Shown here: positions 6,501 through 51,816 of the stretch, one piece after another
How the letters are laid out: every line of letters begins with the position of its first letter
Position numbering within the stretch: position 1 is the first letter of the stretch
Assembly (NCBI GenBank): GCA_965207145.1
Contig: OZ242262.1
Location: 8,827-72,826, forward strand
DNA: 64,000 nt
DNA from: Dehalococcoidia bacterium
GTDB lineage: Bacteria; Chloroflexota; Dehalococcoidia; Lucifugimonadales; UBA2962
Direction: 5' to 3'
Made by a program: the position numbers and the translations under genes
Notes under the pieces: generated by a model
Seen by the model: only the letters and a program-made list of their open reading frames with translations
Database searches by the model: none
What the model was told of the DNA's origin: nothing

Positions 6501-9500
6501 TGATCGTTTCGACGACGTCTTCTAAGCCCCTGCTGCCTGGCCAGCCAATGGTCTGGTCTGTCACCGGGGTATAGTCGCCGGCGTCCGCCGGATGGTCGCC
6601 GTCGGCGTCCGCGGCCGTGTTCCATTCCAGGGTGATTTTTTCCAGCGTCGAATCTTCGATGAGCGAGAAGACCCTCACCGTGAATGAGACGGCATTCCCT
6701 TCATCCACCGCCGTGGGCGGTTCAAACACAACGCCGCCAATGCTTACGTTGGTGACCGTGACTTGCACGTCAGTTGCAGCGGACAGGCCCTTCGTATCGG
6801 TGGCCACCAGCGTGACCTCGTAAACGTTGTCCCCGTCCTTGTCCTTGGGGTCTTCAAAGTCCTGGGCGGGCAGGTCTATCTGTGCCTGTACCGAAAGGCT
6901 TGATGAAATGCTGACAACGGTGAAGAGGTCGGCGTCGTCCCCGGTAAGCGTCCAGGTGACGTCGTCGTGCGGATTGCCGTAGATGACGAAACTGTCGCCA
7001 GGACTGCTCCAGGCAACATTTTCGGTCGCTTCGAAACTGGTGTCTCCGGTGATCTGGAACCCGTCGGTGATGGTGCCTTCGCCCTCGCCGTCGGAGATGG
7101 TGGCGTCGGTGGGCGAGGACAGCCGCACCAGGAACGTCTCGTCCTCCTCGTCCATCGTGTCCTGGGCGGTCTCCACCTCCAGGGTCGCGGTCGTCGACCC
7201 CGCCATGATCGTCACCGTCTGCAAAGTGGTCACCGCGGTGTAGTCCGTTCCCGCCGTGGCCGGATTGGCCCCGGTTGCGTCGTCGGACGTTCCCCACTTG
7301 AAGGTCACCGCCTGCTCCGAGGCCGCGCTCAGGGTCACCTCGAAGGCCACCTTGCTGCCCTCGGGCGCTTCGGCGTCGGCCACCGACAGGGTGGGCGGGG
7401 CATCGTCGTCGGTGATGGTGCCCGTGGCCGTCAGGTCCGCGGCCGTGGCGGACAGCTCCGCGTTGACGGCCCCGGTCAGGGTAACGGTCACCGTCTCGTC
7501 CTCCTCGTCCACCACGTCGCCCTTGACCGGGATGACGATGTTGGCCGTGGTAGACCCGGCGGGGATGGTGACTTCCAGCGGGTCCGGGGTCGTGTAGTCG
7601 CTGACCTCCTCGGCCGTCCCGCCTGTGGCCGTCCCGCCCAGGGTGTAGGTTAGCGTAGCGTCGCTGTTCCTGGCCGCCGACAGGCTCACCGGGAAGTTCA
7701 GGGCAGTCGTCTTGGTTGGGTCGTCGCCCTCGGCCACCGCTGCCGCCGGGGCCGCCACCGACGCTATGGGGAAGCTGGTGACGGTTACCCGCACGGCCTG
7801 GGTATCGCTATTGCCGTCTTCGTCGGTGGCCCGGGCGGTTACCTGGTACACGTTGTCCGTGTTCTGGTCCTTCGGGTCATCGAAGTCCTGGGCCGGCAGG
7901 GAGATGACGCCGGTGTCCGCGTCAATGGTGAAGCGCGCGTCGTCGTCCCCTTCCAGGGTCCAGGTCACGTGGCCCAGGGGAGCGCCGGAAACCGTTGGGA
8001 CGGGCGATTCCCAGTCCAGACCCTCCAGTCGCTCCGCGTCGCTGTAACCGCTGACGACCACCGAACCCAGGTCATCGTTCCGGATGGTTATCCGGGGCAT
8101 CCGGTACGATTGGTTACCACCGACGGGGAAATATCCCCTGTAACGAGGCTGCGGGGGATTGACGGAAGCTATATAGAACAAAACCCCCAGGTCTTCATCG
8201 GCTTCAACGCGGCTGTCCTCAGTGGTGGGGACGGGCAATTTCCAGGATTGAGTTCCCGACAATATAAGAACGGTGCGTGACGGATAACTCCCGTATCCGG
8301 TAATTCGTCTGCCCCGTTCCCAGCCGGTGTAGTCCACGTCGTCGTCGGCTGCCGGATTGCTGACCCCGGCAGTTGTCAGGTACACCAGACCCGTTACGAG
8401 ACGCGTCAACGGGTTGGTTGAATTGAACAAGATGTCAACCGTTTCCCCTTCGTCCACCACCCGGTCGGGGATGTAAAGATCCGTTTGGGTGGAGTCGTTG
8501 ATCTCGACGGTGGACTCGCCTTCCACGGGGTGGATGTTCAGCCCGGCGGACGCCTCTTCCAGGAAAACGGTGAAGGTCTCGGGCACGGGCTCTGCCCGGC
8601 CGTCCTCGAATATGACGACATCGACCGTCTGCGCCGTTTCTCCGGGGGCGAAGGTGATCTTTTCGCGGACGGGCTGATAATCCTCTCCGGCGATTGCGGT
8701 GCCGTTCCTGACGTCGACGAAGACCTCCAGCGCCTGCGTGTGGGGCTTGGAAAGGCTGACGGTGAACCGGGCGCGCCCGGCGTCCTCGTTCACCGAGGCG
8801 GGGCCGCTCACGGACGCCTGGGGCCGCTCGTCGTCAATGATGGTGGTGGTGAGCACCAACCCCAGCCGGGCGTCAGGCGAGAACAGGCTCCACCCCCTCC
8901 CAACGAACGGATAGAGCCACAGGGACAGGGTTTCGTTGCCTTCTGCCAAACTGTCTCCGCGGGGCCGCACACCAAACGTAATCTCGCGGAGTGTTCCCCC
9001 AAATTGTACGGTGTGAATCTCCGCCAGCTCGCCAATTCGAGTTCGCTCATGGCATTCCACTAAACTCGCCCGGAACTCGCCGTTGGCGATTTTGCCAACT
9101 GAGACATCCGTGCTGCCGGCGGCGCCCACAGTCAGGCCCCGAGGCGTCGCTCCTCCCGGGAAATTCCGGGGGTTGGGACGCGTCAGGGCGCACACCTGAA
9201 ATCCGAACTCGTCCCATGGAAAGTTCACTTCATCGGGATGCGCCGTCCGTCTGATCTTCACCTGATAGATCGTGTCGTCGTCCCAGTCGGCAGTCGTGCC
9301 CTCGGGAAGGGCCGCGGGGAGGACGCCGACGATCTCCCAGGTCAGGGCGTCGTCGTCCTCGATTTCGGCATAGCCGACGACGTTGCTGAAGTCGATGCTG
9401 GCTTCGTCGCCGCTGATGGTCACCCGGAACTCTTCGGTGTTCTCGATGAAATCGTCGTCATTGACCGTGACCGAAACCGTCTTCTCGGTTTCGCCGGCCG

Positions 9501-12500
9501 CGAAGGTGACGGAGCCGCTGGCGGCGGTGAAGTCATTCTCTCCCTGGTTGCCGTTGCCTCCGCTGCGGGCCGAATGGAGTGGGCCCGAGGCCCCGTCGCT
9601 CGTTGCCCACCGGACGGTCACGGCCGAGGTCTGGGCCGGCTTGAGGCTGATCACGAAATCGGCCGTGGCGCCGGGACCCTCGGTGACCGGGGCGGCGTCG
9701 GCGATGGCTACCTGCATGGTGTCGTCGTTCTTGATGGTGCCCACGGCGGTGGGGTCCCGGAACTTGGCATGGGGCGCGTGGGCCAGCTGGATCCGGAACT
9801 GCTCGTCGACCTCGGGCTCGATGTCGGGCTGGGAATCCACCACGATGGTCTTGCTCAGCTCGCCCGGCGCGAAGGTGACGGTCTGCCGCGCCGTAACGCC
9901 CACGTAGTCATTGTCCAAGACACTGGCGGTGTCGTCCTCCGTCACCCATATCACCGACACCGGCCTCTCCGAGGCGGCGTCCAGGGAGATGGTGAATTCG
10001 AGGCTGCCGCCTTCCACTGCCTCGGCGTCGCCAATGGACATCCAGGGCCGGGAGTCGTCGTCACGCACGGTCACCACCGCGTCAGCGTCGTCGGGCAGGG
10101 CGCCGGTAACGGAGACCACCGTCACGGTGAAGTACTGGTCGCCCTCGTCTATCGTGTCTTGCAGCGTCTGCACCGCGGGCAAGTCGATACTGGTCTCACC
10201 GGCGGGGATGGTGGCGGACTGCATGGTCCGCGCCGTGTAGTCCTTGCCTGCCTTGGCGGTGTGGGCGTCGTCGGCGCCGTTGCCGCCGTCCTGGGTCTTC
10301 CAGGTGAAAGTGACGTCGGTGGCCGACGGATCGCTGAGGGTGGCCCGCACGTGAGCCGGCTGCCCTTCGGTGACCTTGTCTTCCAGGACCGTCAGCGACA
10401 GGCCGGGCCGGTCCACGATGGTGATGGTGGGCATGGAGACGCTGGCCGCCAGGTCTGCATACTCGTAGTTGACCCCGAACAGTTGTTTTCGGACACGTTC
10501 ATTTTCTGGCGCAACGCCCAGCAAGAAAAGGCTGGCCCCGGCTTCAAACTCCAGGGTGAAGGTTTCCAGACCCTCGCCGCTTATCCCGTCGTCATGAACT
10601 CCAATCGCCTTGCGACCAGTGGTTTGGCCTTTCGGGACATGGATCCAAAAGGCCGTGCCGCTCAGGTCTCGATAATCAACCCCTCCCGTCGCCGTAATGT
10701 CTTTGGTCTTGAAGTTGGCGGACAGATCGTAGGGCACGGGCCTGGAGAGGGTGAGACGAACCACGGCCGAGACTCCTTCCAGCACCGTGGCGTCATCCAC
10801 GGCAACCGTCAGTTCCACCGGGTCGTCGTCGTTGAGGATGATGCCGCGAGAGATGAGGCCGCCGCCTCCGCAAGAAGGCACGCCGCGGAAGCAGGCGTTC
10901 ACCGCGTTGGTAAAGCTAATCCACACGACTTCATCGGGTTCTTTCTCGTAATCGCCCTTGACGGTAACCTCAACCTTCTTTCGCGTTTCGCCGGGCAGGA
11001 AGGTGAGGGTGCCGGAACTCAGGGCCTCATAGTCCGTGCCCGATGTGGCCTGGTCAGGCAGTCCGGTTCCGGCCCGAGAGATTCTTGCGTAGTTCACTTT
11101 GACCGTCCGGCCGCTGGACCGGTCCAGCCGGACAACGTAGGTGAGCTTGGCGGTTTCCCCTTCGTCGGGCTCCCTCACCGTCGAACTGGTCACGGACACG
11201 ATTGGCGGGTCGTCGTCATCCGTGATGGTCAGTTCCTTCAGGAAATAGCGATGTTCATTGCCGTCAGCGTCGGTCTCTACTATGGGCTGGCCGCCGTCGG
11301 CGTCGACCGCCCGCAACCCTTCGGCATTGCCATAGAACACCAGGATGCATTCGTCGTTCTCATCCAGAACATCCCGGCGGGTATAGACCTCGAAGTGCCT
11401 GGTCTGGTCTCCTGGCCCAAAGGTGAAGCGCTGTGAATTCACTGCCCGGTAATCCACGTGCTCCACCGCTTGTTTTTCGCCGCCGGCGCAATGGCTGCCC
11501 GTTGGCTCGACGACTTCGGCGAGGATGCTGGCATGCTCGCCGGGCCGCAGCGCCCGCGCCAGGGTGACGGGCAGCCGGGCCGCCTCACCCTCCGCCACCG
11601 TGCCGCCGCGGATCGTGACGTCGACGGTGTCTTCGCTTTCGATGAAGCCGTAGGCCTTGAGGGTTGTATCCGGAGTTCCGTCGCCGTCCTGGTCGGGAAA
11701 CTCCAAGTTGCCGGATGGATTGCTGAGGGTCAGGGTAAAAGCCTCCACCCCCTCAACGAGATTGTCGTCGACCGGGGTGACAACAATCTCCTGTACCTTG
11801 GTGTCCAGGAAGGAGAGTGTTCCCGATGCGCCGCCGGCGGGCGGCGTGTAGTCGCCGGCGCTGGCGGCATTACTGAAATCGGGTGGGGCGTCGGGTGTGA
11901 TGGCGTAGTTGACGGTTTGAGCGGCGCCCTGTGGCGCGGTCGGCAACTCAACCCGAAAGACGACCTTGCCGTCCTTCTTGGCAGCTTCTGTGGCGCCGTC
12001 GTCCCAGTCCTCCTTGCCTCGGTCGTTTGCCACGTTGACGGGGAGCGGCCGGTTGGTGATAGTGACCGTTATCTTGTTGTTGGGAAAACTAACTTCCGGA
12101 TCCGAAAAGTTGAAGGGTTGGAAATCAATTGCGAACCTTTCCGGCTTCTCCGCTATACCATCCCAGATTGCCTCCAAGGATATGGTTGCGGTGCGAGCCT
12201 CTTCCGAACTGCCGCTAAGCGTTATAGTCCCCTGCCGAACGACAGTGTTTCCCCCAACCTTCGCCGTGAAGTCCTGTCCATATATACCAGCGGACCCGTA
12301 AGTTTCGGTGATGTCGATCGAGGGAATAAAGGTATAGTAAAATTTGCGCTCTCGGGTTCCGGAATTTGCCGGTATCGTTAGCGTGATGTCTTGGGCCGGT
12401 CCGCCTTCTAGAATCGTGACGCTGGTCGGGGATACTGTCACTGGGACACGGTCTGGGCCCTGCTGGGCCGAGACGTCACTGGCGAACAGGCCGACAAGGG

Positions 12501-12657
12501 TGGCGCCAACGATCAGGAACAGGCCCAGCCAATGCGTGTGCCATCCAGACCGGCTTTGGCGCTCTCGCGAGGCTTCCGCCGGTGTGCTGAATTCTACGAT
12601 AGATGCAATCCGCGCCCAGTCTATGGACCGTTTCACCATATAGTCACCCATACTCAT
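1..12657 (-). CDS. Giant secreted Calx-beta / cadherin-like repeat surface protein. The N-terminus is complete; the C-terminal part runs off the left window edge (4,219 codons visible).
   Basis: The minus-strand frame whose codons end at position 1 is in phase with the ATG at 12657 ((12657-3)/3 is an integer; alternative ATGs at 12651 and 12639). No stop-delimited piece of this frame appears in the ORF track, which implies it is open to the window edge. The reverse complement of 1-340 reads ATGTITDDDATPTLSVGDVSVAEGGTAEFTVTLSAASGRDVSFSWKTAADADGDHPAGATDYTAVTATTVTIDAGDTTATLEVETTQDTMDEENETFLVQLSAAANATFADDE, a classic Calx-beta pattern. The reverse complement of 7780-7990 reads WTLEGDDDARFTIDADTGVISLPAQDFDDPKDQNTDNVYQVTARATDEDGNSDTQAVRVTVT, which is cadherin-like; similar modules lie near 6780-6990 and 5700-5900. 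The N-terminus is MSMGDYMVKRS...RSGWHTHWLGLFLIVGATLVGLFASDVSAQQ, a signal peptide. Confidence 0.85.
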   Translation of the reverse strand, partial: MSMGDYMVKRSIDWARIASIVEFSTPAEASRERQSRSGWHTHWLGLFLIVGATLVGLFASDVSAQQGPDRVPVTVSPTSVTILEGGPAQDITLTIPANSGTRERKFYYTFIPSIDITETYGSAGIYGQDFTAKVGGNTVVRQGTITLSGSSEEARTATISLEAIWDGIAEKPERFAIDFQPFNFSDPEVSFPNNKITVTITNRPLPVNVANDRGKEDWDDGATEAAKKDGKVVFRVELPTAPQGAAQTVNYAITPDAPPDFSNAASAGDYTPPAGGASGTLSFLDTKVQEIVVTPVDDNLVEGVEAFTLTLSNPSGNLEFPDQDGDGTPDTTLKAYGFIESEDTVDVTIRGGTVAEGEAARLPVTLARALRPGEHASILAEVVEPTGSHCAGGEKQAVEHVDYRAVNSQRFTFGPGDQTRHFEVYTRRDVLDENDECILVFYGNAEGLRAVDADGGQPIVETDADGNEHRYFLKELTITDDDDPPIVSVTSSTVREPDEGETAKLTYVVRLDRSSGRTVKVNYARISRAGTGLPDQATSGTDYEALSSGTLTFLPGETRKKVEVTVKGDYEKEPDEVVWISFTNAVNACFRGVPSCGGGGLISRGIILNDDDPVELTVAVDDATVLEGVSAVVRLTLSRPVPYDLSANFKTKDITATGGVDYRDLSGTAFWIHVPKGQTTGRKAIGVHDDGISGEGLETFTLEFEAGASLFLLGVAPENERVRKQLFGVNYEYADLAASVSMPTITIVDRPGLSLTVLEDKVTEGQPAHVRATLSDPSATDVTFTWKTQDGGNGADDAHTAKAGKDYTARTMQSATIPAGETSIDLPAVQTLQDTIDEGDQYFTVTVVSVTGALPDDADAVVTVRDDDSRPWMSIGDAEAVEGGSLEFTISLDAASERPVSVIWVTEDDTASVLDNDYVGVTARQTVTFAPGELSKTIVVDSQPDIEPEVDEQFRIQLAHAPHAKFRDPTAVGTIKNDDTMQVAIADAAPVTEGPGATADFVISLKPAQTSAVTVRWATSDGASGPLHSARSGGNGNQGENDFTAASGSVTFAAGETEKTVSVTVNDDDFIENTEEFRVTISGDEASIDFSNVVGYAEIEDDDALTWEIVGVLPAALPEGTTADWDDDTIYQVKIRRTAHPDEVNFPWDEFGFQVCALTRPNPRNFPGGATPRGLTVGAAGSTDVSVGKIANGEFRASLVECHERTRIGELAEIHTVQFGGTLREITFGVRPRGDSLAEGNETLSLWLYPFVGRGWSLFSPDARLGLVLTTTIIDDERPQASVSGPASVNEDAGRARFTVSLSKPHTQALEVFVDVRNGTAIAGEDYQPVREKITFAPGETAQTVDVVIFEDGRAEPVPETFTVFLEEASAGLNIHPVEGESTVEINDSTQTDLYIPDRVVDEGETVDILFNSTNPLTRLVTGLVYLTTAGVSNPAADDDVDYTGWERGRRITGYGSYPSRTVLILSGTQSWKLPVPTTEDSRVEADEDLGVLFYIASVNPPQPRYRGYFPVGGNQSYRMPRITIRNDDLGSVVVSGYSDAERLEGLDWESPVPTVSGAPLGHVTWTLEGDDDARFTIDADTGVISLPAQDFDDPKDQNTDNVYQVTARATDEDGNSDTQAVRVTVTSFPIASVAAPAAAVAEGDDPTKTTALNFPVSLSAARNSDATLTYTLGGTATGGTAEEVSDYTTPDPLEVTIPAGSTTANIVIPVKGDVVDEEDETVTVTLTGAVNAELSATAADLTATGTITDDDAPPTLSVADAEAPEGSKVAFEVTLSAASEQAVTFKWGTSDDATGANPATAGTDYTAVTTLQTVTIMAGSTTATLEVETAQDTMDEEDETFLVRLSSPTDATISDGEGEGTITDGFQITGDTSFEATENVAWSSPGDSFVIYGNPHDDVTWTLTGDDADLFTVVSISSSLSVQAQIDLPAQDFEDPKDKDGDNVYEVTLVATDTKGLSAATDVQVTVTNVSIGGVVFEPPTAVDEGNAVSFTVRVFSLIEDSTLEKITLEWNTAADADGDHPADAGDYTPVTDQTIGWPGSRGLEDVVETITVQTTQDALDEFDETFLIELNAIAKHPVHPHEVEFTILGNRDVVKLGPNATASVTATIVDNDAPPTLSVADAGASEGSKAAFTVTLSTVSARDVTFQWKTAADETDGANPAGATDYTAVTATTATIAAGDRTATLEVQIVQDAIDEHDETFLVQLSSPTNATIFDAEAVGTISDRFSLRGRAEYRVLENVAWSGEFTVAGNPTGAIAWTLGGDDADLFTVTDTSMTTPDVTRAKLSLAAQDFEDPKDKDGDNVYEVTLVATDESGLASRLNVEVTVTDVIRAAIVIHPVKPVDEGDPVTFKVQIQHINFGSPAEGDDVTLEWNTAADADGDHPAGTSDYTPVTTGTITWATTYSAPDIDKFITVQTAGDTLDEHDETFLIELNASVGNSIHSDEVHFVITDDGTDYATRGLDPRVTVTATIKDDDAQTAVVSIGDAKAVIEGDDPAATTNMSFPVSLTAASGRVVTVTYTLTGTARAPGDYTAPNPLSVSVPAGSTTANIVIPIRGDVLYEDDETVIVTLTGATNAALDEDASDLTATGTITDDDETIELSIADLTVAEGKTMVFTVSISRIAPTDVFVGWRTSPDSTGDHPAEQQKDFVYDTGIVRVKAGNTSGRLAVRTVGDTLDEHDETFLIKLSQPRNATIVDGQATGTITDDDDAPTLSVNDVSVAEGGLAEFTATLSAASGKAVFFKWKTAADADGTHAAGASDYTAVAETDATIAAGFKTVKLKVQTVQDTLGEEDETFLVQLSAAANATFADAEGQGTITDNDDAPVDDDAPTVSVAAPGAAVPEGDDPTKTTDMSFPVSLTAASGKDVTVTYVLGGSASPGSDYIKSDPLSVTIAAGATTANIVVPIKGDMLDEDDEYIIVTLTGATNAKLPDTPSQKAAIGDITDDDGTPTLSVDDVSVVEGDTAGFTVTLSAASGKAVSFSWKTAADETEDAHAAGAADYTAVGTLQTVTIYPGGLTATLEVETTQDAIDEHDETFLVKLSAAANATFSDGGDEGVGTITDNDDATAVASVGAPAAAVAEGNDPAATTNMSFPVSLTAASGKVVTVTYTLTGTAEAPGDYTAPDPLSVSVPAGSTTANIVIPVKGDVLDEDDETVIVTLTGATNAALSNTAAELTATGTITDDDATPTLSVGDVSVAEGGTAEFTVTLSAASGRDVSFSWKTAADADGDHPAGATDYTAVTATTVTIDAGDTTATLEVETTQDTMDEENETFLVQLSAAANATFADDEATGTITDNDDAPTLSVDDVSVAEGSTAEFTVTLSAASSKAVTFKWKTANATGADAAGASDYTAVGTLQTVTIAAGSTTETLEVQTTQDTLDEADETFLVQLSDATNATVADGEGQGTITDDDGTPTLSVNDASVTEGGTVAFTVTLSAASGKAVSFSWKTAADSTEGAHAAGASDYTAVGTLQTVTIAAGDRTATLEVETTQDAIDEHDETFLVKLSAAANATFSDGGDEGVGTITDNDDATAVASVGAPAAAVAEGNDPAATTNMSFPVSLTAASGKVVTVTYTLTGTAEAPGDYTAPDPLSVSVPAGSTTANIVIPVKGDVLDEDDETVIVTLTGATNAALSNTAAELTATGTITDDDATPTLSVGDVSVAEGGTAEFTVTLSAASGRDVSFSWKTAADADGDHPAGATDYTAVTATTVTIDAGDTTATLEVETTQDTMDEENETFLVQLSAAANATFADDEATGTITDNDDAPTLSVDDVSVAEGSTAEFTVTLSAASSKAVTFKWKTANATGADAAGASDYTAVGTLQTVTIAAGSTTETLEVQTTQDTLDEADETFLVQLSDATNATVADGEGQGTITDDDGTPTLSVNDASVTEGGTVAFTVTLSAASGKAVSFSWKTAADSTEGAHAAGASDYTAVGTLQTVTIAAGDRTATLEVETTQDAIDEHDETFLVKLSAAANATFSDGGDEGVGTITDNDDATAVASVGAPAAAVAEGNDPAATTNMSFPVSLTAASGKVVTVTYTLTGTAEAPGDYTAPDPLSVSVPAGSTTANIVIPVKGDVLDEDDETVIVTLTGATNAALSNTAAELTATGTITDDDATPTLSVGDVSVAEGGTAEFTVTLSAASGRDVSFSWKTAADADGDHPAGATDYTAVTATTVTIDAGDTTATLEVETTQDTMDEENETFLVQLSAAANATFADDE

Positions 12658-31275: not shown

Positions 31276-32478
31276 TTACCACTGGGAAGACTCCTCCGAA
31301 TACATGTGGTCGGGCAGCCTGTAGCTGATCCCCATCTCTTCCAGCACCGAGGCCTCCAGCAGCGACGTGAACCTGGTGAAGTTCGAGTTCTCCACACTCC
31401 TTCGGCCCAGCCTGGCCAGAAGGCGCTGGTACCTGGCCTGCATCCGAAATATGAACAGGGTCCCAAAGCTGGGGTCGGATGGGTACATCAACTGGTCGGC
31501 CAGCGCGTTGCCGATCAGGGCGCGGGACACTTTGAACACGTAGCTTGCCATCTTGCGGCGTTCCGATGGGTCGGTAACGTCAATCACCAGCGGGGCAGAG
31601 TTGATCAGCGCGTTCGCCATGACGATCGACTCCAGGGAGGGCGGAGGCTCGCACATCGAGCCGATCTGGAGCAGGTACCGAGCGTCTTCCTCGTCCTGGA
31701 AGAGCATGGAGGAAGGAATGCCCATGACATGCCCGGTGTACCGCCAGATGGACATGAGGCTCTTGCGTTCCTCGTCGGTGAACTCAGCCCCCAGGCTCTT
31801 CATGTGGTCCAGGAGCCTGGCCGAGAAGGCCGTGATCGCGTAACCCAGATGGGCCGAGCTTATGGGCAGGCCCCACGCTTCGTGGTCCCATTCATCGGAG
31901 TTCCCGAGCAACCGTCTGAGCTGGGCGTGCACCAGCCGGATCCGCACCGACAGCTTCCAGCCGTCTCCGTCCCTGGTCAGACCGTCGGGCATGAATATCT
32001 CGATCATGTGCCGGTTGTTCTGCCTCAGCCTCCGTACCCCCTGGTCCCGCAATTTCCCACTGATGAAGAAAGACTTGCTGATGTTGGTGGCGAACCCCTC
32101 CACAAGCGTGCCCCCGACAAATGCGCCCAAGATGAGGTGGGAGTTCCGATGGAACATGCGGATTCCCGGGATGAATGAATCAAAATCCACCCAGTCCGGC
32201 ACTTTCTCCGCGTCATCGAAGAATTTTCTCGCCGACGAAGGAGCGTCAGCCAGGCTTTCCCAGTCCTGTTCCTGCAACACCGCCTGAAACAGCAGCGCCT
32301 GCTCCCGCCTTGAGACGCTGGACAGGTCTTCCATCATGGCGTCGGCCAGAGGATCTCCAATCAACGTGTGGGCGACATAGTTGGCGGCCGTCTCCGGCGC
32401 CAATTGGCGCGCCTTCTCGTACCCGGCCCGGTAGTCGGTGGGTATAGTCGCCGGGAGTTCGTATTCAATCGCTGCCAT
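31276..32478 (-). CDS. Oxygenase MpaB-family / DUF2236-like protein (tentative).
   Basis: 400 aa. The overall pattern (...FHRNSHLILGAF...RIRLVHAQLRRLL...) resembles DUF2236. Recognition is by eye only. Confidence 0.5.
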   Translation of the reverse strand: MAAIEYELPATIPTDYRAGYEKARQLAPETAANYVAHTLIGDPLADAMMEDLSSVSRREQALLFQAVLQEQDWESLADAPSSARKFFDDAEKVPDWVDFDSFIPGIRMFHRNSHLILGAFVGGTLVEGFATNISKSFFISGKLRDQGVRRLRQNNRHMIEIFMPDGLTRDGDGWKLSVRIRLVHAQLRRLLGNSDEWDHEAWGLPISSAHLGYAITAFSARLLDHMKSLGAEFTDEERKSLMSIWRYTGHVMGIPSSMLFQDEEDARYLLQIGSMCEPPPSLESIVMANALINSAPLVIDVTDPSERRKMASYVFKVSRALIGNALADQLMYPSDPSFGTLFIFRMQARYQRLLARLGRRSVENSNFTRFTSLLEASVLEEMGISYRLPDHMYSEESSQW

Positions 32479-40015: not shown

Positions 40016-41059
40016 CTGCAAGTGGGTTGCGGTCATAGTGCTGTCGGTGTCAGTCGGTGCAGCGTTTGCCCTCACCATCATCTTTGTCGGGTAGGGAGAG
40101 GAATTGGCCTACAGCGTTTACAGGGACGGGACACCATGCAGGGGATGGTCCACGACATCAATTGCCTCTTCACAAGCTTTCACCTCATGGAAAGCCCCAA
40201 GCCGGTGTCTTATTTCCAGGCCTCGACATGGGCACGCCGAATAGGGCAGCTATCTCTCTGCGTGGCTTCTTGCCCTGATGCTGATCAGCGCCGTCTTCAC
40301 AGTCGTCGGCAGCTGCGCCACGTTTATTCTCACCACCCAATGACATGAAGGCTATCCCCGTACTTGGACTGCTCATAGTCCGCCGCGGTTATCTATCGGA
40401 CCGCTACAACCGTGTCATGAATTTCCCTGGAACCGTGGCACCTCCGTAGATTTCTTCCACAGGTTGGAAGATCACAGGGAAATGGCGTTCCAGATCCTCT
40501 CGGCTGCTGCTCCGCCCCAGTTCGTCCGTCACCGCAAAATAACCGGTGCTTAACACGGCGAAAAGGCTCGCTGAAAGCCATTGCAACTACCGTATACGGT
40601 AAGATACTGAACTGGTGCTACAGTGCCCTTACGCTCGTTAACTGCTGGAAGACGCGCTTTATCGGTGTGGACTGGGCCGTTGCAATGTGGATCCGAGCGG
40701 ACTGACCTTTCGACGATCCTGAAGTAATACGGTCGTTCAGCTACTGCGAAAGCAACATGTCATTTGGGAGCGTCGAGAAGCGAAAGTCTGGGGCTTACCG
40801 GCCGCCCGGGCAAGAGTCTACAGACGAATGTACTGCGAATTAGGGTAGACACCTGTTCGCTACGTTGGGCAACAGCATTGGCCACACATGACGATGACAT
40901 TGACGCCATGTCGGTCCTAAAGGAGCACCCTGTTAGGCACCTAGCTTCTCCATTTGGCCGATCTTGGAAGCTTTCTGTGCCGGTAAGAGATGCTGCCATC
41001 GAGGGGCGGAAGCCTAGACTGGCACATCGCATCAAGATAGTGCATCGAGGTCAGACCTG

Positions 41060-43087
41060 ATGACTGCGTCAAAGGGTGAAACGACGATCCAATCGCTCAG
41101 CTTGACTGAAGAACTCCTCCTGATGCTCCTCAACGAGGAGAGTGGTTATTTCCACCAGGTGCCCGGATGGGACCTTAACTGCGCCGTCGTCGGTGCCGTG
41201 CTAGCGGAACTTTCACTCAGGTCTCGAATTGACACAGATCTTGAATCACTTTTTGTCGTTGACGAGACAGAAACGGGTAGACCCACACTGGACTCTATCC
41301 TGAAGGAAATCGCAGCCGAACCGGTCCAAAGGACCACGCAGTACTGGATCGAGAGGCTGGCGCCCCGCGCGGAGTCAATCATCGATTGGACTCTTGATCA
41401 CCTGGTTGACCTGAAGATTCTGGAACACCACGACGGGGAGTTCTGGACGCTGTCCCGTACTACATGGCAAGAGGGGATGTTTGGCAACTCGTCGGAGGGG
41501 ACCGCAGTCCAGTTTGTAAAGACCCGTATCAGCAACGCGATCTTCAATAACGAGATCCCTGACCCGAGGGATGTCATCATCATCTGCCTGATCAACACGT
41601 GCGACGTCTTCCGTTTCATGTTCCAGCTTGATGACGAGGCGGAGGAGCGTATTCAGTTCATCTGCAAGATGGACCTGATCGGCCGCTCCATAGCTGAAGC
41701 GGTGGCCCACAATCTGGCGGGCCCGCTGTTCCGACGTTCGGCCCTGACCAAGAAGATCCCTACCGCTTCCTTGCGCAAGATCCTGTTCAATCCTCACATC
41801 CGCAAGGGCAACATACCGGCAGTGTTCGCGGACCTTGCGCACGAGTATGGCCCGGTGTTTCAGATCCGACCTCCGTTTTCCGAGCCCATGATCGTCTTGG
41901 CGGGCTCCGACACAAATCAGTGGGTCCATCGCCGAGGTCGAATGTACCTGAGAGCGAGGGACTATTTCTCGGACTTTGAGAAAGTCTATGGCGCCGCCGG
42001 GGTGCTGCCCGCCCTTGACGGCGCCGACCATTTCCGACTGCGCAAGTCCTTATCGGCGGCCTATTCCCGCAAGAGACTGGCGGGACAGATAGACGACCTT
42101 TACGGACATGCGCGAAGGCATATGGCGCAGTGGACAGTTGGGGAGGTCTACCCAGCGACCGGCATGAGCCGGCAAATGATCAACGCTCAGATCTCGCCTT
42201 TCATGGTGGGAGTTGAGACTCAGGACATCATTGACGACCTGCTCAAGTTCAAGGAACGGGCGCTCAGCGTCCACATTATGAAGATCATGCCGAAGTTCAT
42301 GCTGAAAACTCCCGGCATGAGGCGCCGGGCGAAGTTCATCGAAGCGTTGCTCGAGCGCGTCTACAGCGTGCATACCCCCGCCCAGCGAGCCGGACGGCCC
42401 CTAGACCTGGTGGACGACTATCTGAGCCTGCATGCGAGCGATCCGCAGTTCATACCCGAATCTAACCTCAGGTTCGCCTTTACCGCGGCGCTGGTGGCCA
42501 GCGCATACCTCGGCGATGCGTTTAGCTTCACCCTGTATGCCATGGCCTCGCAGCCGGAGGTCCACGCGAGAATCCAGGCCGAGGCCGACGCCCTGTTTGG
42601 CAACGGCGATCCGAAGCCCGAGGACTTCAGCCCGTCCACGATTGATGTCACGCACCGCTTCATGATGGAGTGCATGCGCATGTACCCGGTCGTTCCGATG
42701 TCCATTCGAAACGTGATGAATTCCTGTGTGGTAGAGGACTACGAACTGCCGGTGGGTTCGAGGGTCATCATCGCCCAGACGTCCACGCATTACATGGAGG
42801 ATGTCTTTCCAGATCCCTTCAAGTTCGATATCGACCGCTATCTGCCCCCGCGCAATGAGCACCTCAGCCCCGGGTACGCACCCTACGGGCTGGGTACCCA
42901 CACATGCCTCGGCTCCCGGTGGATGGAGTTGCAACTGGCCGTCAACCTGCTGATGGTTGCGCACTACTTCACGCTTGAGGTGCTGCCGAAGAACTTCGAG
43001 TTCCGGTTTAACCCCATACCGTCGATGAAGCCGAGCAGCAGGCTGAAGTTCCGCATAACCGGGAAAAGGCGCGAACTGAGCGCTTAA
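41060..43087 (+). CDS. Fusion protein: N-terminal GPP34/GOLPH3-family domain plus C-terminal cytochrome P450.
   Basis: The N-terminal region reads LSLTEELLLMLLNEESGYFHQVPGWDLNCAVVGAVLAELSLRSRI, the GPP34 pattern. The C-terminal region has ExxR (ECMRMYP) and the haem loop APYGLGTHTCLGSRWMELQ. It is a single uninterrupted 675-aa ORF. Confidence 0.85.
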   Translation: MTASKGETTIQSLSLTEELLLMLLNEESGYFHQVPGWDLNCAVVGAVLAELSLRSRIDTDLESLFVVDETETGRPTLDSILKEIAAEPVQRTTQYWIERLAPRAESIIDWTLDHLVDLKILEHHDGEFWTLSRTTWQEGMFGNSSEGTAVQFVKTRISNAIFNNEIPDPRDVIIICLINTCDVFRFMFQLDDEAEERIQFICKMDLIGRSIAEAVAHNLAGPLFRRSALTKKIPTASLRKILFNPHIRKGNIPAVFADLAHEYGPVFQIRPPFSEPMIVLAGSDTNQWVHRRGRMYLRARDYFSDFEKVYGAAGVLPALDGADHFRLRKSLSAAYSRKRLAGQIDDLYGHARRHMAQWTVGEVYPATGMSRQMINAQISPFMVGVETQDIIDDLLKFKERALSVHIMKIMPKFMLKTPGMRRRAKFIEALLERVYSVHTPAQRAGRPLDLVDDYLSLHASDPQFIPESNLRFAFTAALVASAYLGDAFSFTLYAMASQPEVHARIQAEADALFGNGDPKPEDFSPSTIDVTHRFMMECMRMYPVVPMSIRNVMNSCVVEDYELPVGSRVIIAQTSTHYMEDVFPDPFKFDIDRYLPPRNEHLSPGYAPYGLGTHTCLGSRWMELQLAVNLLMVAHYFTLEVLPKNFEFRFNPIPSMKPSSRLKFRITGKRRELSA

Positions 43088-43116: not shown

Positions 43117-44172
43117 CTAAGGAGAGGGGCTAGGTCTAAGAGGCTTGCGCGCCAGGAAACAGTAAAGTGGCGTGAAGATCCCGGCCCTGCCGCCCGCGAC
43201 ATAGGCGTTTGCAGTCCTATCCAGCAGCCTGACGACGTCCGCAGAGCCCTTGGGAAACACGCCCAGCACCTCGGCCAGCCTGCATACCCCGACAAAAGCC
43301 TTGCGGCCCAGCGGAATCCTGTAGAGGGCGCCGCGCAGTGCTCCGTCCGGGGCTTCCATGGGTCGATACCACGGGGTGATCGAACCGTTCTCCCCGACGC
43401 CGCGGTCAATCCCCTCGATGACCTCGAATCCCGCCGCTACGAGCGACCGGTTCACCTCATCCGTCGTGGCGATTTCCTTGAGCGCTATGCCGTGCATCAG
43501 GTCCTGCTTTTTGGCCAGGTGCCCAGCATCGCTGGGGTCGAACCTGTCCGTCATGCACATCTCCTGACCCCAGAAGAGAGCTCCGGGCTTCAGCACGCGG
43601 CATATCTCGGCGAACGCTCCCACCTTGTCCGGGGCATGGCAGGTCGATTCGATCGCGTAACCGCGGTCGAACGTGTCGTCCGCGATTGCGCCCATGTCCA
43701 TGAAGCTGCACTCGAGGTAGTCGACCATGTAGTCGACCCCCGCCTCGGCGTTCAACGATTTCGCCCTGTCAAGCTGGATCTTATTGTTGTTGACCCCTAC
43801 GACCCTGGCGCCGACCTCACGGACTACACGGCGCATGGGGCCGCCTATCCCACAACCGACATCGATCACCGTCATGCCCTCGCTCATCTCCAGCTTGTCG
43901 ATCATCAGTCGCTGATGCCTGAGCTTGGACTCCTCCAGGCTCTCCCCGGGCGATAGCGGCGCGAAGTGGAGGGATTCGCCCCAGCCGAACACCATGAATT
44001 CGCCGCAAAGGTCATAGTACTCCTTGACGGTTGCTGCGTGGTCGTAGCCCGGCCCGCTAACCCCCTGCGCGGACGCCCTGTCGAGCCATCCATCAAATCG
44101 CTGCACGCGACGGGCTACGGGGGATCCCAGGTACGCGGCCTCCAGCCCTTTGCGTAGATTGCCGAGTTGCAT
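43117..44172 (-). CDS. Sterol C-24 methyltransferase (ERG6/SMT1-family) homologue.
   Basis: YYDLCGEFMVFGWGESLHFA (SMT region I), VIDVGCGIGGP (SAM motif I), YAIESTCHAP (SMT region II), VLKPGALF, EMCMTDRFDP, and the C-terminal TPWYRPME...GRKAF...LGVFPKGS...AGGRAGIFTPLYCFLARKP (Sterol_MT_C-like). Confidence 0.8.
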   Translation of the reverse strand: MQLGNLRKGLEAAYLGSPVARRVQRFDGWLDRASAQGVSGPGYDHAATVKEYYDLCGEFMVFGWGESLHFAPLSPGESLEESKLRHQRLMIDKLEMSEGMTVIDVGCGIGGPMRRVVREVGARVVGVNNNKIQLDRAKSLNAEAGVDYMVDYLECSFMDMGAIADDTFDRGYAIESTCHAPDKVGAFAEICRVLKPGALFWGQEMCMTDRFDPSDAGHLAKKQDLMHGIALKEIATTDEVNRSLVAAGFEVIEGIDRGVGENGSITPWYRPMEAPDGALRGALYRIPLGRKAFVGVCRLAEVLGVFPKGSADVVRLLDRTANAYVAGGRAGIFTPLYCFLARKPLRPSPSP

Positions 44173-44709: not shown

Positions 44710-45549
44710 CTAGTCGCCCTTCACCCCCACTGCATGCGCCCTCGCCGTTGACAGGTAGGCGTCAGGGTGCTTTGCCCACTCGCGGATGCCGCTGACCATC
44801 GACTCTAGCTCAGAGTCAGTGGTCAGGCCCAGTTCAATCGACTCCTGGAACAGCGGGACGTTCTCAATCCACGCGATGTAGATCTCGGCCGACGCGCTCG
44901 CGGCGTCCTGCCCCAACACGTGGGACATATTGGTCTCGAACTCGATGACGTCGAAACCGGCCTCACGCATGTGGGACCTCAGGAAGCGCCCTCGGTTAAG
45001 CGATCCGCCGATTCGCGTAAAGCCGCCCTCGAACAGCTCGAAGAACCTGCTCAGCTCAGGACACTCCGGCACGATGAACGGGAACGACCAGTCGGTACGA
45101 GCGACCGCTCCGACGCCGCCGGGTTTCGTGACCCTGAGTATCTCCCTCAGCGCACGGACGGGATCGGACAGGTGCTCGGTGACCGCGCTGGAAAACACGA
45201 CATCGAACTCGCCGTCTTCGTATGGCAGGTCGTAGATGTCCGCTACCTGGAACGCGAGGTTCTCCAGTCCGCTGTCGGCGGCTAGCCGGTTGGCCCGCTC
45301 GATCATCGTCGGCTCGATGTCGATGCCCACGACCCGGCCGGGCGCCACGATCTCCGCGAAACTGAGCGCGATCGGCCCCGGCCCGCAGCCGCAGTCGAGT
45401 ACGCTCTTACCCTCAGACAGGTGCGGCACTAGGAAGTCGGCGAGCCGGACTGTGTCACGGTTAGCGTAGCCCCGCTGAACTCTGGCCGAGTCGTATCCGT
45501 AGAATGGTCTTCCTCCGAACTGCGGAGTCTGTGGTACGTGTGCCGTCAT
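44710..45549 (-). CDS. Class I SAM-dependent methyltransferase (Methyltransf_11/25-like).
   Basis: VLDCGCGPGPIALSFAEIV...VVGIDIE...FDVVFSSAVTEHL...VTKPGG. Confidence 0.85.
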   Translation of the reverse strand: MTAHVPQTPQFGGRPFYGYDSARVQRGYANRDTVRLADFLVPHLSEGKSVLDCGCGPGPIALSFAEIVAPGRVVGIDIEPTMIERANRLAADSGLENLAFQVADIYDLPYEDGEFDVVFSSAVTEHLSDPVRALREILRVTKPGGVGAVARTDWSFPFIVPECPELSRFFELFEGGFTRIGGSLNRGRFLRSHMREAGFDVIEFETNMSHVLGQDAASASAEIYIAWIENVPLFQESIELGLTTDSELESMVSGIREWAKHPDAYLSTARAHAVGVKGD

Positions 45550-48161: not shown

Positions 48162-49217
48162 TTAGGCGGCCGGGGTGTCAGAATCGCTGGGGTCGGGATA
48201 AAACTGGGCGCAGTAGGCTCTAAATGGCATGAGCTCACCGTCGGAACGGCATAGGCGCGGGCGAGACTGATATTGCTTGCGACTCCAGATGAGCACGTCC
48301 TGTAGCACATCCTTTTCTTGCTGGGCGGCCATGAACTTGTTCATGATGGGCGCGCGCATCCCCACCGGGAGAAATCCGAGGCCCAGTATCCACCGCCTGG
48401 GGTTACGAATCTCCCGCACCTGACCTACCAAAGACATGTCGATCAGCGTGCCGTCGACGGGCGTCGCCAGTATCCACAGGCGCAGGTCCATGCCGATGGA
48501 GTGCTCGCGGATCTCCACGTACGAGTAGCCCAGTCCATAGATTCGCGTCCTCGCCGATATATTGAACGTTAGGCTCGCAATGCCTGCGATCGAGCGCGTT
48601 CTGGTGAAGTCGAAATCGCTTTCGAGAAGGTGTCCGTCCACGGACACGGGGTCGACGCGGTTTACGCCGTCGTAACCGTGCACGTACCGCAGGTGCGCCA
48701 GGTCAACCGAATTCTCCGTAGTCTCCTGAGGATGCCCGGGAAAACGGATGGTCTTGATATCAAGATCGCTCCAACCAGTTTGATCAGGCGACTCCGCGGG
48801 CAGGCTCCACTGGGGCGGCCTTCCCCGGATTCCCCACCACGCGAAGATCAACCCGGCTATTTCCCGTGTTTCGAAGACCCGCAGCCTTGCGAATTTCGGC
48901 GGAGGGGAAAAGGGAGTGGCAACGCATTGGCCCGTGGCATCGAACTCATAGCCATGAAAGGGACACACGAGCCGACCATCGCACACCCTCCCCCCTGCCG
49001 CAGGCCCCAGATCGGCACCAAGGTGAGGGCAAAAGGCCCCGGATACGCAGACTCGCCCGTCTTCATCGCACCAGACTATGATGCTCTCGCCCATCCAGGT
49101 CTTTTGGATGAGCTTCTCCCTCGAGATGGCCCGACGACTTGTAACGAAATACCAGCCCTCAGGGAAAGGGGAAGCTAGCGGGGCGTCAGCGGGCGCCTTA
49201 TAACGGGTTGCTATCGT
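48162..49217 (-). CDS. Rieske [2Fe-2S] non-haem-iron oxygenase (KshA / cholesterol-desaturase-type architecture). The N-terminus extends upstream of the first ATG.
   Basis: CPHLGADL...CPFHGYEF (Rieske) and ENSVDLAHLRYVHG (mononuclear iron). The reading frame stays open 41 codons upstream of the ATG at 49094 and encodes ...PFPEGWYFVTSRRAISREKLIQKTW, the first strands of the Rieske domain. Confidence 0.8.
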   Translation of the reverse strand, partial: TIATRYKAPADAPLASPFPEGWYFVTSRRAISREKLIQKTWMGESIIVWCDEDGRVCVSGAFCPHLGADLGPAAGGRVCDGRLVCPFHGYEFDATGQCVATPFSPPPKFARLRVFETREIAGLIFAWWGIRGRPPQWSLPAESPDQTGWSDLDIKTIRFPGHPQETTENSVDLAHLRYVHGYDGVNRVDPVSVDGHLLESDFDFTRTRSIAGIASLTFNISARTRIYGLGYSYVEIREHSIGMDLRLWILATPVDGTLIDMSLVGQVREIRNPRRWILGLGFLPVGMRAPIMNKFMAAQQEKDVLQDVLIWSRKQYQSRPRLCRSDGELMPFRAYCAQFYPDPSDSDTPAA

Positions 49218-49329: not shown

Positions 49330-51816
49330 CTAAGGAGTGCTCGGCTGATCCTGACCGTGACGCCGGTGCACATCCTCAATGGCCTCGTCAAGGTCGCTCC
49401 ACATGCGTTCGACCATGGAGCGCAGCCGCATGTTCTGGTACGCGCCCCAGACGACCATCGCGGGCAGCACCACCAGGATGGAGACTATGAGGGAGTAGGC
49501 GATGGTGATGGTCGCCGTGATACCGAACTGCTGTGACGCAAGCAGGGGCGAGGCTATCAGCACCCCGAATCCGAACGCCGTCGTCAGCGCCGAGCCCATC
49601 AGCGCCGAGCCCGTGGTAGCCAGGGTCCGCACAGCCGCTTGCTCCGGGTTGCGCAGACGGGCGAACTCCTCCCGGTAGCGATGAATCACGTGGATGGTGT
49701 AGTCCACCCCGATTCCGATCGACAGCGCCGTGATGATGGAGGTGACCAGGGTGTAGGGAATGTCCAGCAGCGCCATCGTACCCAGCACGCTGATGAGGAC
49801 GAGCACTATCGGCCCCACCGCAACGAGCCCGAGCATGGGCTGGCGCAGCGTCACCCAGAAGAAGATGGTGAGGATGCCCAGTGCAACCGCTACGGTGACA
49901 CTAATCGACTCCGTCTGCCGTCCGGTGATCTGGTCCGTGACCGCGATGGCGACGATGCTGCCCGAGGTCGCCGTGATGGCGCTGTCGTCGCCGGACCAGA
50001 GCGCCTCTATCTCCTCCTGTATCATCCCCGTTCCCTTGGGATCGCCCTGGTAGGTGGGGAACTGCAGCAGCAGCGTATCGACCCCGTCCGGATCGTTAAC
50101 GAGGAAGCGCGCCAGGTGGGGTTCCAGGTCGACAAGCCTGTCGATGACCTCCTGCATCAGTTCTCGATCGAGGCCCACCCCAACGGAGGCTTCCCGGTAG
50201 AGAGCCGCAAGCTCGGGGTCGTAGTTGTCTCCGGGCTCTCCTGTGTCTTCTACCCAGTCGCTCAGTGCCGAGTAGTACGAAGCCTGGATCGGTCCTGCCG
50301 CCTGGGGAGGACGGCGCGACTCGTCCTCAAATGCGGCCGTGAGATCCTGAAGATTCAGGAGCGTGCGTGTCTCGGTAGCCTCGGCCTTGACCACTACGCT
50401 GGTGAGCTCCGTAGAGCCTCCCACGGCTGCTTCGAGCGTTTCCATGTCCTCCAGCACGCTCCCACCCCGGGGCAGGATGTCGCGGATGCTGAATTCGGAC
50501 TTCAGTCCCGTTGCGGCGAACCCGAGCCCGACGGTCACCGCTATGACGCAGACCAGATAGGGCGCGGGCCAGCGTGTTACCGATCGCCCCAGCCGCTCCG
50601 CCAGCAGCGGGATGCCGGGCAATGCGTTAGAGATCGGTCGCGCGGGCGGCAAGGTGCCTCGTGCCTCGCGCCGCCGGTCTATGATGGTTCGTCCGGCCGG
50701 GATCAGGGTCAGCATCACTATCAGGCTCAATCCCACGCCCAAGCCCGCGACGATGCCGAAGTCGCCAATCACCCCTATCGGGGAGAACAGGCTCGCCAGC
50801 AGGCTCACAATTGTCGTGACGGCGGCCAGGGTTAGCGGGATCGTGACATTGCGCAGCCCCGTGCGGACGGCCGTCAGGACAGGCGCGCCTGCGGTTCGCT
50901 GCTCGCGGTAGTGGGACACGGCCTGAATGGCATAGTCCACCGTGAGGCTGATGAGGATCACGGGCACCATGGCGGTGAGCGAGCTGGGAGGGCCAATCGC
51001 TCCCAGCGCCTCCGGCCCGAGCCAGCCTTCCGCCCCGACAACCCAGATTATCGAGAGGATGAGGCCGAGCAGCGTTAACAGCGTATCCGAAATGGCGCGC
51101 GTAAAGAGCAGAAGCAGCGCTGCGATCAGGAGCAGCGCCAGGCCTATGAGCGGTGCCATACCCGACTCGGTGGCCTCCTTGTACTCGTCCTCGATGATCA
51201 CCGGGGATAGGCTGCTCACGTCAAGGGGGCCGTCATCCGCTGTAGCGAGGTCGCTGATCGCTCGTTCGGCGTCCTCGATTCGCTCGTCACCGGTGTCGAT
51301 CAGGCTTATGGTGGCGATCCCAACCGGCTTGCCGTCCTCGTCCTCTCCGGTCAGCGCGGAGAATGCCTCCTGCAACTGCGGCGTCCCGACCACGGAGTCG
51401 ATCTCTGCCTGCGTGACCGAATCGAAGCCGTCGACCCGGAGCACAGACTTGACCAGCGAAGTCGGGGCGGCGACGGGATCACCTGCAACCAGTAGCTCAC
51501 GAACGCCCTGGTCACTCTCGATCTCACCTAGCAGCGCGTCCATCTGAGAGAGCCCGTCGGGAGTGAGCACATCTCCGCGGAACACGAGCGTGGCAACGCT
51601 CACATCGCCCGAGTCGGCGAACGACGCCTCTATCTCCTGCGTCGCCGCAGCAACGGCGTGCCCGGGCGGAAGGAACGCCAGGTCGGCTCCTTCCGTGGGA
51701 GGGGCGCGCATCGTCACGCCCGCGCCAAGCAAGACTGTTACGGCGAGAAGGACTAGGAGCGTGACGTACGGGCGGACCGTGATCAGCCAGCTCAGCCTAT
51801 CGAGTACCTGGCCCAT
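49330..51816 (-). CDS. MMPL/RND-superfamily transporter (HpnN-like architecture).
   Basis: 828 aa with two blocks of about 6 TM helices, each preceded by a large soluble loop. The sequence texture is typical of MMPL proteins (…LSIIWVVGAEGWLG…, …GIGVDYTIHVIHRYREE…). Confidence 0.85.
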   Translation of the reverse strand: MGQVLDRLSWLITVRPYVTLLVLLAVTVLLGAGVTMRAPPTEGADLAFLPPGHAVAAATQEIEASFADSGDVSVATLVFRGDVLTPDGLSQMDALLGEIESDQGVRELLVAGDPVAAPTSLVKSVLRVDGFDSVTQAEIDSVVGTPQLQEAFSALTGEDEDGKPVGIATISLIDTGDERIEDAERAISDLATADDGPLDVSSLSPVIIEDEYKEATESGMAPLIGLALLLIAALLLLFTRAISDTLLTLLGLILSIIWVVGAEGWLGPEALGAIGPPSSLTAMVPVILISLTVDYAIQAVSHYREQRTAGAPVLTAVRTGLRNVTIPLTLAAVTTIVSLLASLFSPIGVIGDFGIVAGLGVGLSLIVMLTLIPAGRTIIDRRREARGTLPPARPISNALPGIPLLAERLGRSVTRWPAPYLVCVIAVTVGLGFAATGLKSEFSIRDILPRGGSVLEDMETLEAAVGGSTELTSVVVKAEATETRTLLNLQDLTAAFEDESRRPPQAAGPIQASYYSALSDWVEDTGEPGDNYDPELAALYREASVGVGLDRELMQEVIDRLVDLEPHLARFLVNDPDGVDTLLLQFPTYQGDPKGTGMIQEEIEALWSGDDSAITATSGSIVAIAVTDQITGRQTESISVTVAVALGILTIFFWVTLRQPMLGLVAVGPIVLVLISVLGTMALLDIPYTLVTSIITALSIGIGVDYTIHVIHRYREEFARLRNPEQAAVRTLATTGSALMGSALTTAFGFGVLIASPLLASQQFGITATITIAYSLIVSILVVLPAMVVWGAYQNMRLRSMVERMWSDLDEAIEDVHRRHGQDQPSTP

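Follow-up and report, generated by a model that had tools for sequence, protein, structure and literature searches.

A 64,000-nucleotide stretch of contig OZ242262.1 from a Dehalococcoidia bacterium, hereafter the window, carries on its forward strand (41060 to 43087) a gene for a 675-residue protein in which a GPP34 domain, of the GOLPH3/Vps74 fold, is joined to a cytochrome P450. The protein is a member of a family already published as GPP34_L, and we think it probable that it works in the cytoplasm as the oxidase of a cassette for tailoring and exporting sterol-type lipids, the GPP34 domain serving as an adaptor in cis. On this reading the fusion would supply the P450 activity in a cassette that has spread horizontally among symbionts of sponges and of some corals. 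It is accompanied there by SMT-B, a divergent sterol methyltransferase paralogue, by a Rieske oxygenase of the KshA type and by an exporter that suits the cell envelope, and often also by a CrtI/amine-oxidase-like flavoprotein. Sterols, taken from the symbionts' own horizontally spread sterol operons or from the host, are the most likely substrates. The P450 would hydroxylate or desaturate them, possibly by activating oxygen in an unconventional way; the steps of SMT-B and the Rieske enzyme would precede or follow, and the exporter would carry the product to the surface of the cell. As for the GPP34 domain, it would most likely be an adaptor or scaffold in cis, holding the oxygenase against the membrane or against a partner protein; phosphoinositide reading by this domain is unlikely. 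The domain architecture, its conservation, the synteny, the loss of the pocket and the altered I-helix are observed directly, while the class of substrate, the sequence of reactions and the part played by GPP34 are inferred from them.

The fusion protein and its family

The gene has an ATG start with GAGG 9 nt upstream, and one frame runs through both domains. Pfam profile PF05719 (GPP34) matches residues 15-216 (41102 to 41707) with 107.2 bits against a cut-off of 29.1, covering profile positions 1-199 of 201, and PF00067 (p450) matches residues 247-645 (41798 to 42994) with 127.1 bits against a cut-off of 22.8. A first-pass annotation made from the letters alone had read a complete GPP34 domain and a complete P450 in this single open reading frame (ORF), and with both profiles far above their cut-offs that description is borne out. 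Between the domains lies a basic linker, residues 217-246 (41708 to 41797), which has a charge of +6 and not one acidic residue, and which runs into the proline-rich/GN region, the one that follows the membrane anchor in microsomal P450s. An AlphaFold2 model of the full chain, for which 45 diverse homologues were the input, is confident (pLDDT 89.5, pTM 0.86), with disorder limited to the N-terminal 10 residues, a loop at 139-150 and a part of the linker at 222-228. Among 80 orthologues the GPP34 domain, the linker and the P450 are about equally conserved (0.76, 0.73 and 0.75), and this equal conservation, with the whole-chain pTM of the predicted structure, suggests that domains and linker are one functional unit.

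The same length and both domains recur in more than 120 protein clusters at 73-98% identity; when each prokaryotic species was represented by one genome, at least 571 stretches encoding relatives came to light, many of them on complete long-read chromosomes; and an exhaustive HMMER search added dozens of full-length representatives, down to 25% identity. The linker is matched with 0 differences and 0 indels in contigs from two independent sponge-metagenome runs. The joining of two separate genes by a frameshift, indel or mis-assembly, a concern raised at first annotation, can be dismissed: we found no point in its favour, and the hundreds of independent full-length copies, the indel-free independent assemblies and the conserved linker rule it out.

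Sponge metagenomes are the majority of the runs that contain the fusion sequence. In the phylogeny of the fusion, other phyla are nested within the Chloroflexota on short branches and, to judge from these sequences, the gene is one that has spread by horizontal transfer among co-resident phyla.

The architecture was named GPP34_L by Ferreira et al. (2025, Microbiome 13:4, PMC11706023), who counted 656 proteins, in many phyla and only in sponge symbionts, found them expressed in Aplysina aerophoba, and proposed that they bind phosphatidylinositol 4-phosphate (PI4P) and interfere with phagosome maturation. The same authors report a P450 gene at most 5 genes from a stand-alone GPP34 gene in 25 of 32 genomes, and GPP34 domains fused to Rieske or ABC-ATPase domains; gene families of both these kinds also occur in the cassette neighborhood described below. 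The window protein, with both domains in one polypeptide of a sponge-associated bacterium, falls within the definition of GPP34_L, and it shares the PF05719 plus PF00067 architecture, the length of about 675 residues, the habitat and the multi-phylum spread, with no structural difference. It is the reading that differs, PI4P and the phagosome there, a lost pocket and a sterol-type cassette here. The GPP34-P450 fusion itself is already known, but the sterol-cassette link and the pocket loss appear to be unpublished: sterols, methyltransferases, pocket residues and signal peptides are all absent from the paper of Ferreira et al., the Welander laboratory's papers on sterol methyltransferases mention neither P450 nor GPP34, and a literature search found no paper linking GPP34, sterols and sponges in the present sense. 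One fusion-bearing contig in our set (L046, JAAXIB010000027.1) belongs to the coral-associated Nitrospirales metagenome-assembled genome (MAG) 'Plut', listed by Brown et al. (2023) as 'Nitrospira sp., coral reef', so that the family is not strictly sponge-exclusive as published.

The region just upstream of the fusion gene, 40349-41059 (about 670-700 nt), has a G+C content of 0.53-0.56, the flanking genes being at about 0.6 or above, and contains no ORF of 80 residues or longer except an overlapping pair with weak starts at 40760-41060. No Rfam match and no sigma-70-like promoter were found in this gap, and terminator-like sites occur there at chance level. Two RNA-seq runs from a sponge carrying relatives gave 0 reads on the locus, an uninformative result that probably reflects host poly-A libraries or another strain.

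The GPP34 domain

Modeled alone (pLDDT 84), the N-terminal domain has significant Foldseek matches in the PDB only to GOLPH3 (TM 0.67-0.68, E 6e-9) and Vps74, and a profile built from 17 N-domains aligns with full-length GOLPH3 (9qpq_A, E 2.6e-13) from one end of the domain to the other. The fold is that of GOLPH3 and Vps74 (PDB 3KN1, 9QPQ, 2ZIH), down to a predicted β-hairpin at residues 121-131 with strands at 121-124 and 128-131. Identity is only about 21%, however, and the present domain is acidic, bacterial and fused to an enzyme. The PtdIns4P pocket of GOLPH3 consists of W81, R90, R171 and R174, and binding is lost in both double mutants, W81A/R90A and R171A/R174A (Wood et al. 2009). In the profile alignment P35, V44, E105 and I108 of the fusion stand opposite these four, with all three basic residues lost, and the R90 column is A or V in 45/45 diverse fusions and Arg in none. 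Residues 1-216 contain 17 K+R versus 37 D+E, a net charge of about -20. In its pocket residues the domain does not match a GOLPH3-type PI4P effector, and the original suggestion that it tethers the P450 by binding phosphoinositides or membranes as GOLPH3 does gains no support, given the loss of the basic residues and the charge.

Could the domain act outside the cell? The GPP34 profile starts at residue 15, and the stretch ahead of it, a mere 14 residues and hydrophilic, is too short for a classical signal peptide; no N-terminal signal sequence is found in it. Secretion by a non-classical route would leave no such mark in the sequence. ORF clustering found no secretion-system genes among the conserved neighbors in 80 loci. 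Because the pocket is lost, the domain is acidic and a classical signal peptide is missing, GOLPH3-style reading of PI4P by a secreted fusion protein seems unlikely.

Two other roles for the domain fare no better. Delivery of a lipid substrate, also proposed at the outset, has no support, because the GOLPH3 fold is not known to have a lipid cavity. A redox partner was considered and rejected: in residues 1-246 we looked for flavin and Fe-S cofactor domains and detected only GPP34, and the N-domain has no Cys cluster. The P450-redox-partner fusions (BM3/CYP102, CYP116B, CYP51-Fdx) likewise combine a P450 with a second domain, and BM3 haem domains are among the nearest folds, but here the partner is N-terminal and without a flavin or iron-sulfur motif, and therefore cannot supply electrons. 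It is plausible, rather, that GPP34 is an in-cis adaptor or localizer at the position of the microsomal P450 anchor. Such a role fits the placement of the domain, the proximity of P450 genes to stand-alone GPP34 genes, and the presence in the cassette of the Rieske and ABC-ATPase types of fusion partner.

The P450 domain

The P450 domain has its Cys ligand, C616, in YGLGTHTCLG and its ExxR motif as E537-C-M-R540, and both are invariant in 45 diverse fusions. Its best PDB sequence matches, over the whole domain at E of about 1e-18, are CYP51s, among them the CYP51-ferredoxin fusion of M. capsulatus (6MCW, 7JJ1), and with these it shares the long 'eukaryote-like' class and the sterol context. 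The nearest folds are CYP184A1 (oleate), BM3, CYP120A1 (retinoic acid) and CYP51, which bind lipophilic substrates, all at 20% identity or less. Under the P450 nomenclature rule membership in a CYP family requires at least 40% identity; the domain, at no more than 20% to any solved P450, belongs to no characterized family. Identity as a CYP51 was considered and rejected: identity to 6MCW is about 20%, the CYP51 I-helix signature is absent, and adjoining sterol operons contain a separate true CYP51 (ERG11).

The I-helix is atypical. The motif A480-S-A-Y-L-G-D486 (42497 to 42517, forward strand) stands where CYP51 has AG(Q/H)HTS, so that Y483 or L484, depending on register, occupies the Thr position and there is no acid; the canonical acid-alcohol pair, (A/G)Gx(D/E)T(T/S), is missing. 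ASxYLGD is invariant in 80 orthologues, and sister clades as remote as about 33% identity have it too; AG[LI][DE]T is retained in fusion clades that lie further off. Such a loss is known from P450s whose chemistry is substrate-assisted or other than monooxygenation, and the reaction type of the fusion P450 may accordingly be one of several. P450s that lack the I-helix Thr, and with it the pair, include CYP74, CYP5A1/CYP8A1, CYP152 and EryF, and also CYP7/CYP8/CYP39 and CYP61/CYP710; their relation to the present domain is at the level of the superfamily only, and A-S-x-Y-L-G-D is not known to match any of them.

A conserved cassette

What genes accompany the fusion? We surveyed genes within 10 kb of it in 80 related loci from seven phyla (Chloroflexota, Latescibacterota, Nitrospirota, Binatota, Verrucomicrobiota, Thermodesulfobacteriota and Actinomycetota). 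Three reverse-strand genes of the window stand out. SMT-B (43117 to 44172; Methyltransf_11 plus Sterol_MT_C) is convergent with the fusion at a distance of 29 nt, and this link to a sterol-methyltransferase homologue, already remarked in the first-pass annotation, is strongly conserved: tblastn with the window proteins finds SMT-B in 60/80 loci. The Rieske [2Fe-2S] plus KshA_C oxygenase (48162 to 49217) is found in 63/80, and the HAE3/MmpL-type RND transporter, an HpnN/Patched-like protein with a sterol-sensing domain (SSD; 49330 to 51816), in 51/80. Unbiased ORF clustering returned the same top three partners, in 59, 59 and 50 loci. SMT-B is directly downstream of the fusion and convergent with it in 39 loci, with a median gap of 39 nt. 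Clustering further recovered an amine-oxidase/CrtI-like flavoprotein (32 loci), an MFS transporter (22), an LppX/LprG-type lipoprotein (22), an ABC ATPase (13), ERG4/ERG24 (8), an SdmA-like Rieske gene (6), and pumps made up of AcrB, a membrane fusion protein (MFP) and an outer membrane factor (OMF).

The exporter follows the envelope. Chloroflexota have the MmpL/SSD RND transporter in 47/58 loci, along with an LprG-like lipoprotein; the diderm Latescibacterota, Binatota, Verrucomicrobiota and Thermodesulfobacteriota have AcrB and MFP in 16/16 loci, as pumps of the AcrB-MFP-OMF type. Because the exporter is replaced non-orthologously according to envelope, export looks like a part of the cassette's function, so far as gene content can tell.

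The link to sterols is closest in the Nitrospirota, where in 4/4 loci the cassette and a de novo sterol operon form one continuous stretch of genes. In one of these (L020) the order is fusion, SMT-B, KshA-type Rieske enzyme, outer membrane protein, flavoprotein, canonical SMT-A, SdmB-like, SdmA-like and ERG24, a gene-for-gene match to the 'Nitrospira MAG' cluster of Brown et al. (2023, Suppl. Data 1), which runs on into ERG11 and SMO-OSC. The coral-associated contig L046 appears, by lineage, source and gene order, to be the Nitrospira contig of Brown et al., and its SMT-B corresponds, by the gene IDs, to 'Nitrospira 2 of 2', one of the enzymes that they tested. In another locus (L051) an ERG4/ERG24 sterol reductase directly follows the fusion. 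The window's SMT-B retains its Sterol_MT_C domain (59 bits), and the best match of the Rieske enzyme is the steroid-specific KshA. ERG24-CYP51-LSS operons are, moreover, common in sponge Dehalococcoidia: Kelly et al. (2022) found them in 115/537 Ircinia MAGs, Dehalococcoidia included, and concluded that horizontal transfer had spread them.

Other features of the window and of related loci

The Rieske/KshA_C gene has an odd 5' end: a start at its first ATG (49094, reverse strand) would remove the conserved N-terminus, and the frame is open upstream of it through 49094-49217 (TIATRYKAPADAPLASPFPEGWYFVTS), where it matches orthologues of about 358 residues. A non-canonical start is likely, and the gene is probably not a pseudogene. 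A second class-I SAM methyltransferase (44710 to 45549, reverse strand) lies outside the conserved cassette, with a true orthologue (92% identity) only in the near-identical locus L004 and one weak 32% match in L001; neither it nor the MPAB_Lcp gene (31276-32478) is a conserved partner of the fusion clade in the 80 loci. At the start of the window (1-12657, reverse strand) is a giant ORF of more than 4219 codons that extends past the window's edge.

Genomes can hold several copies of the cassette, as two fusion-plus-SMT cassettes lie about 25 kb apart on one Dehalococcoidia contig, CAYZES010000007.1 (L009 and L080). Two GPP34-P450 paralogues, 27% identical and on the same strand, are found in L051 (7773-13139), where they are adjacent, and in L039 (4987-12028), where they are about 3 kb apart. 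Distant fusion clades with the canonical I-helix (L081, 8001-11230; L086, 6351-10007) lie beside sulfotransferases with no SMT nearby, and L081 also has an acyltransferase and PhyH dioxygenases. In the two sister clades sampled, AcrB-type pumps adjoin the fusion, with a KshA-type Rieske gene near one and an amine-oxidase-like flavoprotein near the other. Different fusion clades may serve different lipid chemistries.

Weighing the explanations

Several points weigh against a sterol-type tailoring cassette with GPP34 as adaptor. No member of the family has been characterized biochemically; to that extent the first-pass annotation, which knew of no characterized P450 with a GPP34 partner, was right, although the fusion had been published. 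Region I of SMT-B reads FMVFGWGESLHF in place of FYEFGWGQSFHF, a change of Tyr-Glu to Met-Val, and because of it the substrate may not be a standard sterol. The Welander laboratory found 11 tested SMTs to be inactive on desmosterol and 24-methylenecholesterol and suggested a possible need for other sterols; SMT-B enzymes may be among the 11. With no more than 20% identity to any solved P450, the fold gives no substrate assignment. SMT-B is absent from the 10-kb surroundings in about one quarter of the loci. The ORF clusters of the 80 loci yielded no conserved ferredoxin or reductase in the vicinity of the fusion, and a motif scan of small ORFs picked up nothing but off-frame noise; none of the cassette partners reached the cut-off when compared with NCBIfam. 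Finally, the acidity of the GPP34 domain speaks against simple electrostatic binding to anionic membranes, and its role as adaptor is conjecture.

Does the same cassette logic hold if what is methylated, oxidized and exported is no sterol but a triterpenoid (a hopanoid, for example), a carotenoid, a retinoid or a long-chain fatty-acyl lipid? We regard this as unlikely, though to be taken seriously. The rebuilt sterol-binding region I and the inactivity on standard sterols of some tested bacterial SMTs are what one would expect of it; SMT-B also matches the CMAS/cyclopropane-synthase families, fatty acid or retinoic acid is the ligand in the nearest P450 folds, the RND transporter resembles the HpnN and MmpL lipid exporters, and an LprG-like lipoprotein and an amine-oxidase-like flavoprotein are typical partners of complex lipids. 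Sterols are nevertheless favored by the retained Sterol_MT_C domain, by the joined sterol operons of the Nitrospirota and the ERG4/ERG24 gene beside the fusion, by the affinity of the Rieske enzyme to KshA, and by the sterol-sensing domain of the transporter. Of the functional idea first attached to the gene, the sterol link holds and phosphoinositide tethering does not, so that the idea is partly supported.

The proposal of Ferreira et al. makes the protein a host-manipulation effector, released to bind PI4P on sponge phagosomes and block phagolysosome maturation, with an unspecified accessory role for the P450. There is much about the family's ecology that would suit an effector: its near confinement to sponge symbionts of many phyla, its expression in A. 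aerophoba, the predominance of sponge metagenomes among the runs that hold the sequence, horizontal transfer among co-resident phyla, and a fold shared with eukaryotic proteins. The molecule itself, however, suits it poorly. The PI4P pocket (R90 to V44, R171 to E105, R174 to I108) is not conserved, the domain is rich in acidic residues and no signal sequence precedes it; a haem P450 requires haem loading and electron donors; and the gene is tightly linked, in a conserved way, to lipid enzymes and exporters. Pocket residues and secretion signals were not looked at by Ferreira et al., and we consider the effector role quite improbable.

Detoxification or catabolic entry is the last alternative, in which host sterols entering the symbiont membrane would be oxidized and then pumped out or degraded. 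KshA-type Rieske enzymes and P450s start steroid catabolism in actinobacteria, and efflux pumps are linked to the fusion. Catabolism, however, has no use for a SAM-dependent C-methyltransferase, genes for KstD, Hsa or β-oxidation are not found among the conserved neighbors in the 80 loci, and the Nitrospirota cassette is joined to biosynthetic genes, all of which leaves this explanation highly doubtful.

Implications

The cassette joins two literatures, that on the 'eukaryotic-like proteins' of symbiosis and that on bacterial sterol and biomarker biosynthesis, and the only published proposal for the function of the fusion, PI4P-mediated evasion of the phagosome, conflicts with the present sequence evidence. 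The sterol link of the fusion is directly testable. A sterol-tailoring role would give a first function to a bacterial GPP34 domain and to a P450 clade without the oxygen-activating Thr.

Who makes the sterols of sponges? The cassette bears on this question, and hence on the reading of Neoproterozoic sterane biomarkers. One speculative proposal, which we put forward as improbable, is that the cassette is the missing bacterial machinery for the 'unconventional' sterols of sponges, those with side-chain methylation at positions other than C-24 (26-methyl sterols, the aplysterol-type precursors of the 26-methylstigmastane biomarker) or with otherwise oxidized or desaturated nuclei. SMT-B would then need the product of the P450 or the Rieske enzyme as its substrate, and would be inactive on desmosterol for that reason. 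If this proposal were true, demosponge biomarker sterols would owe their origin at least in part to a mobile cassette of bacterial genes.

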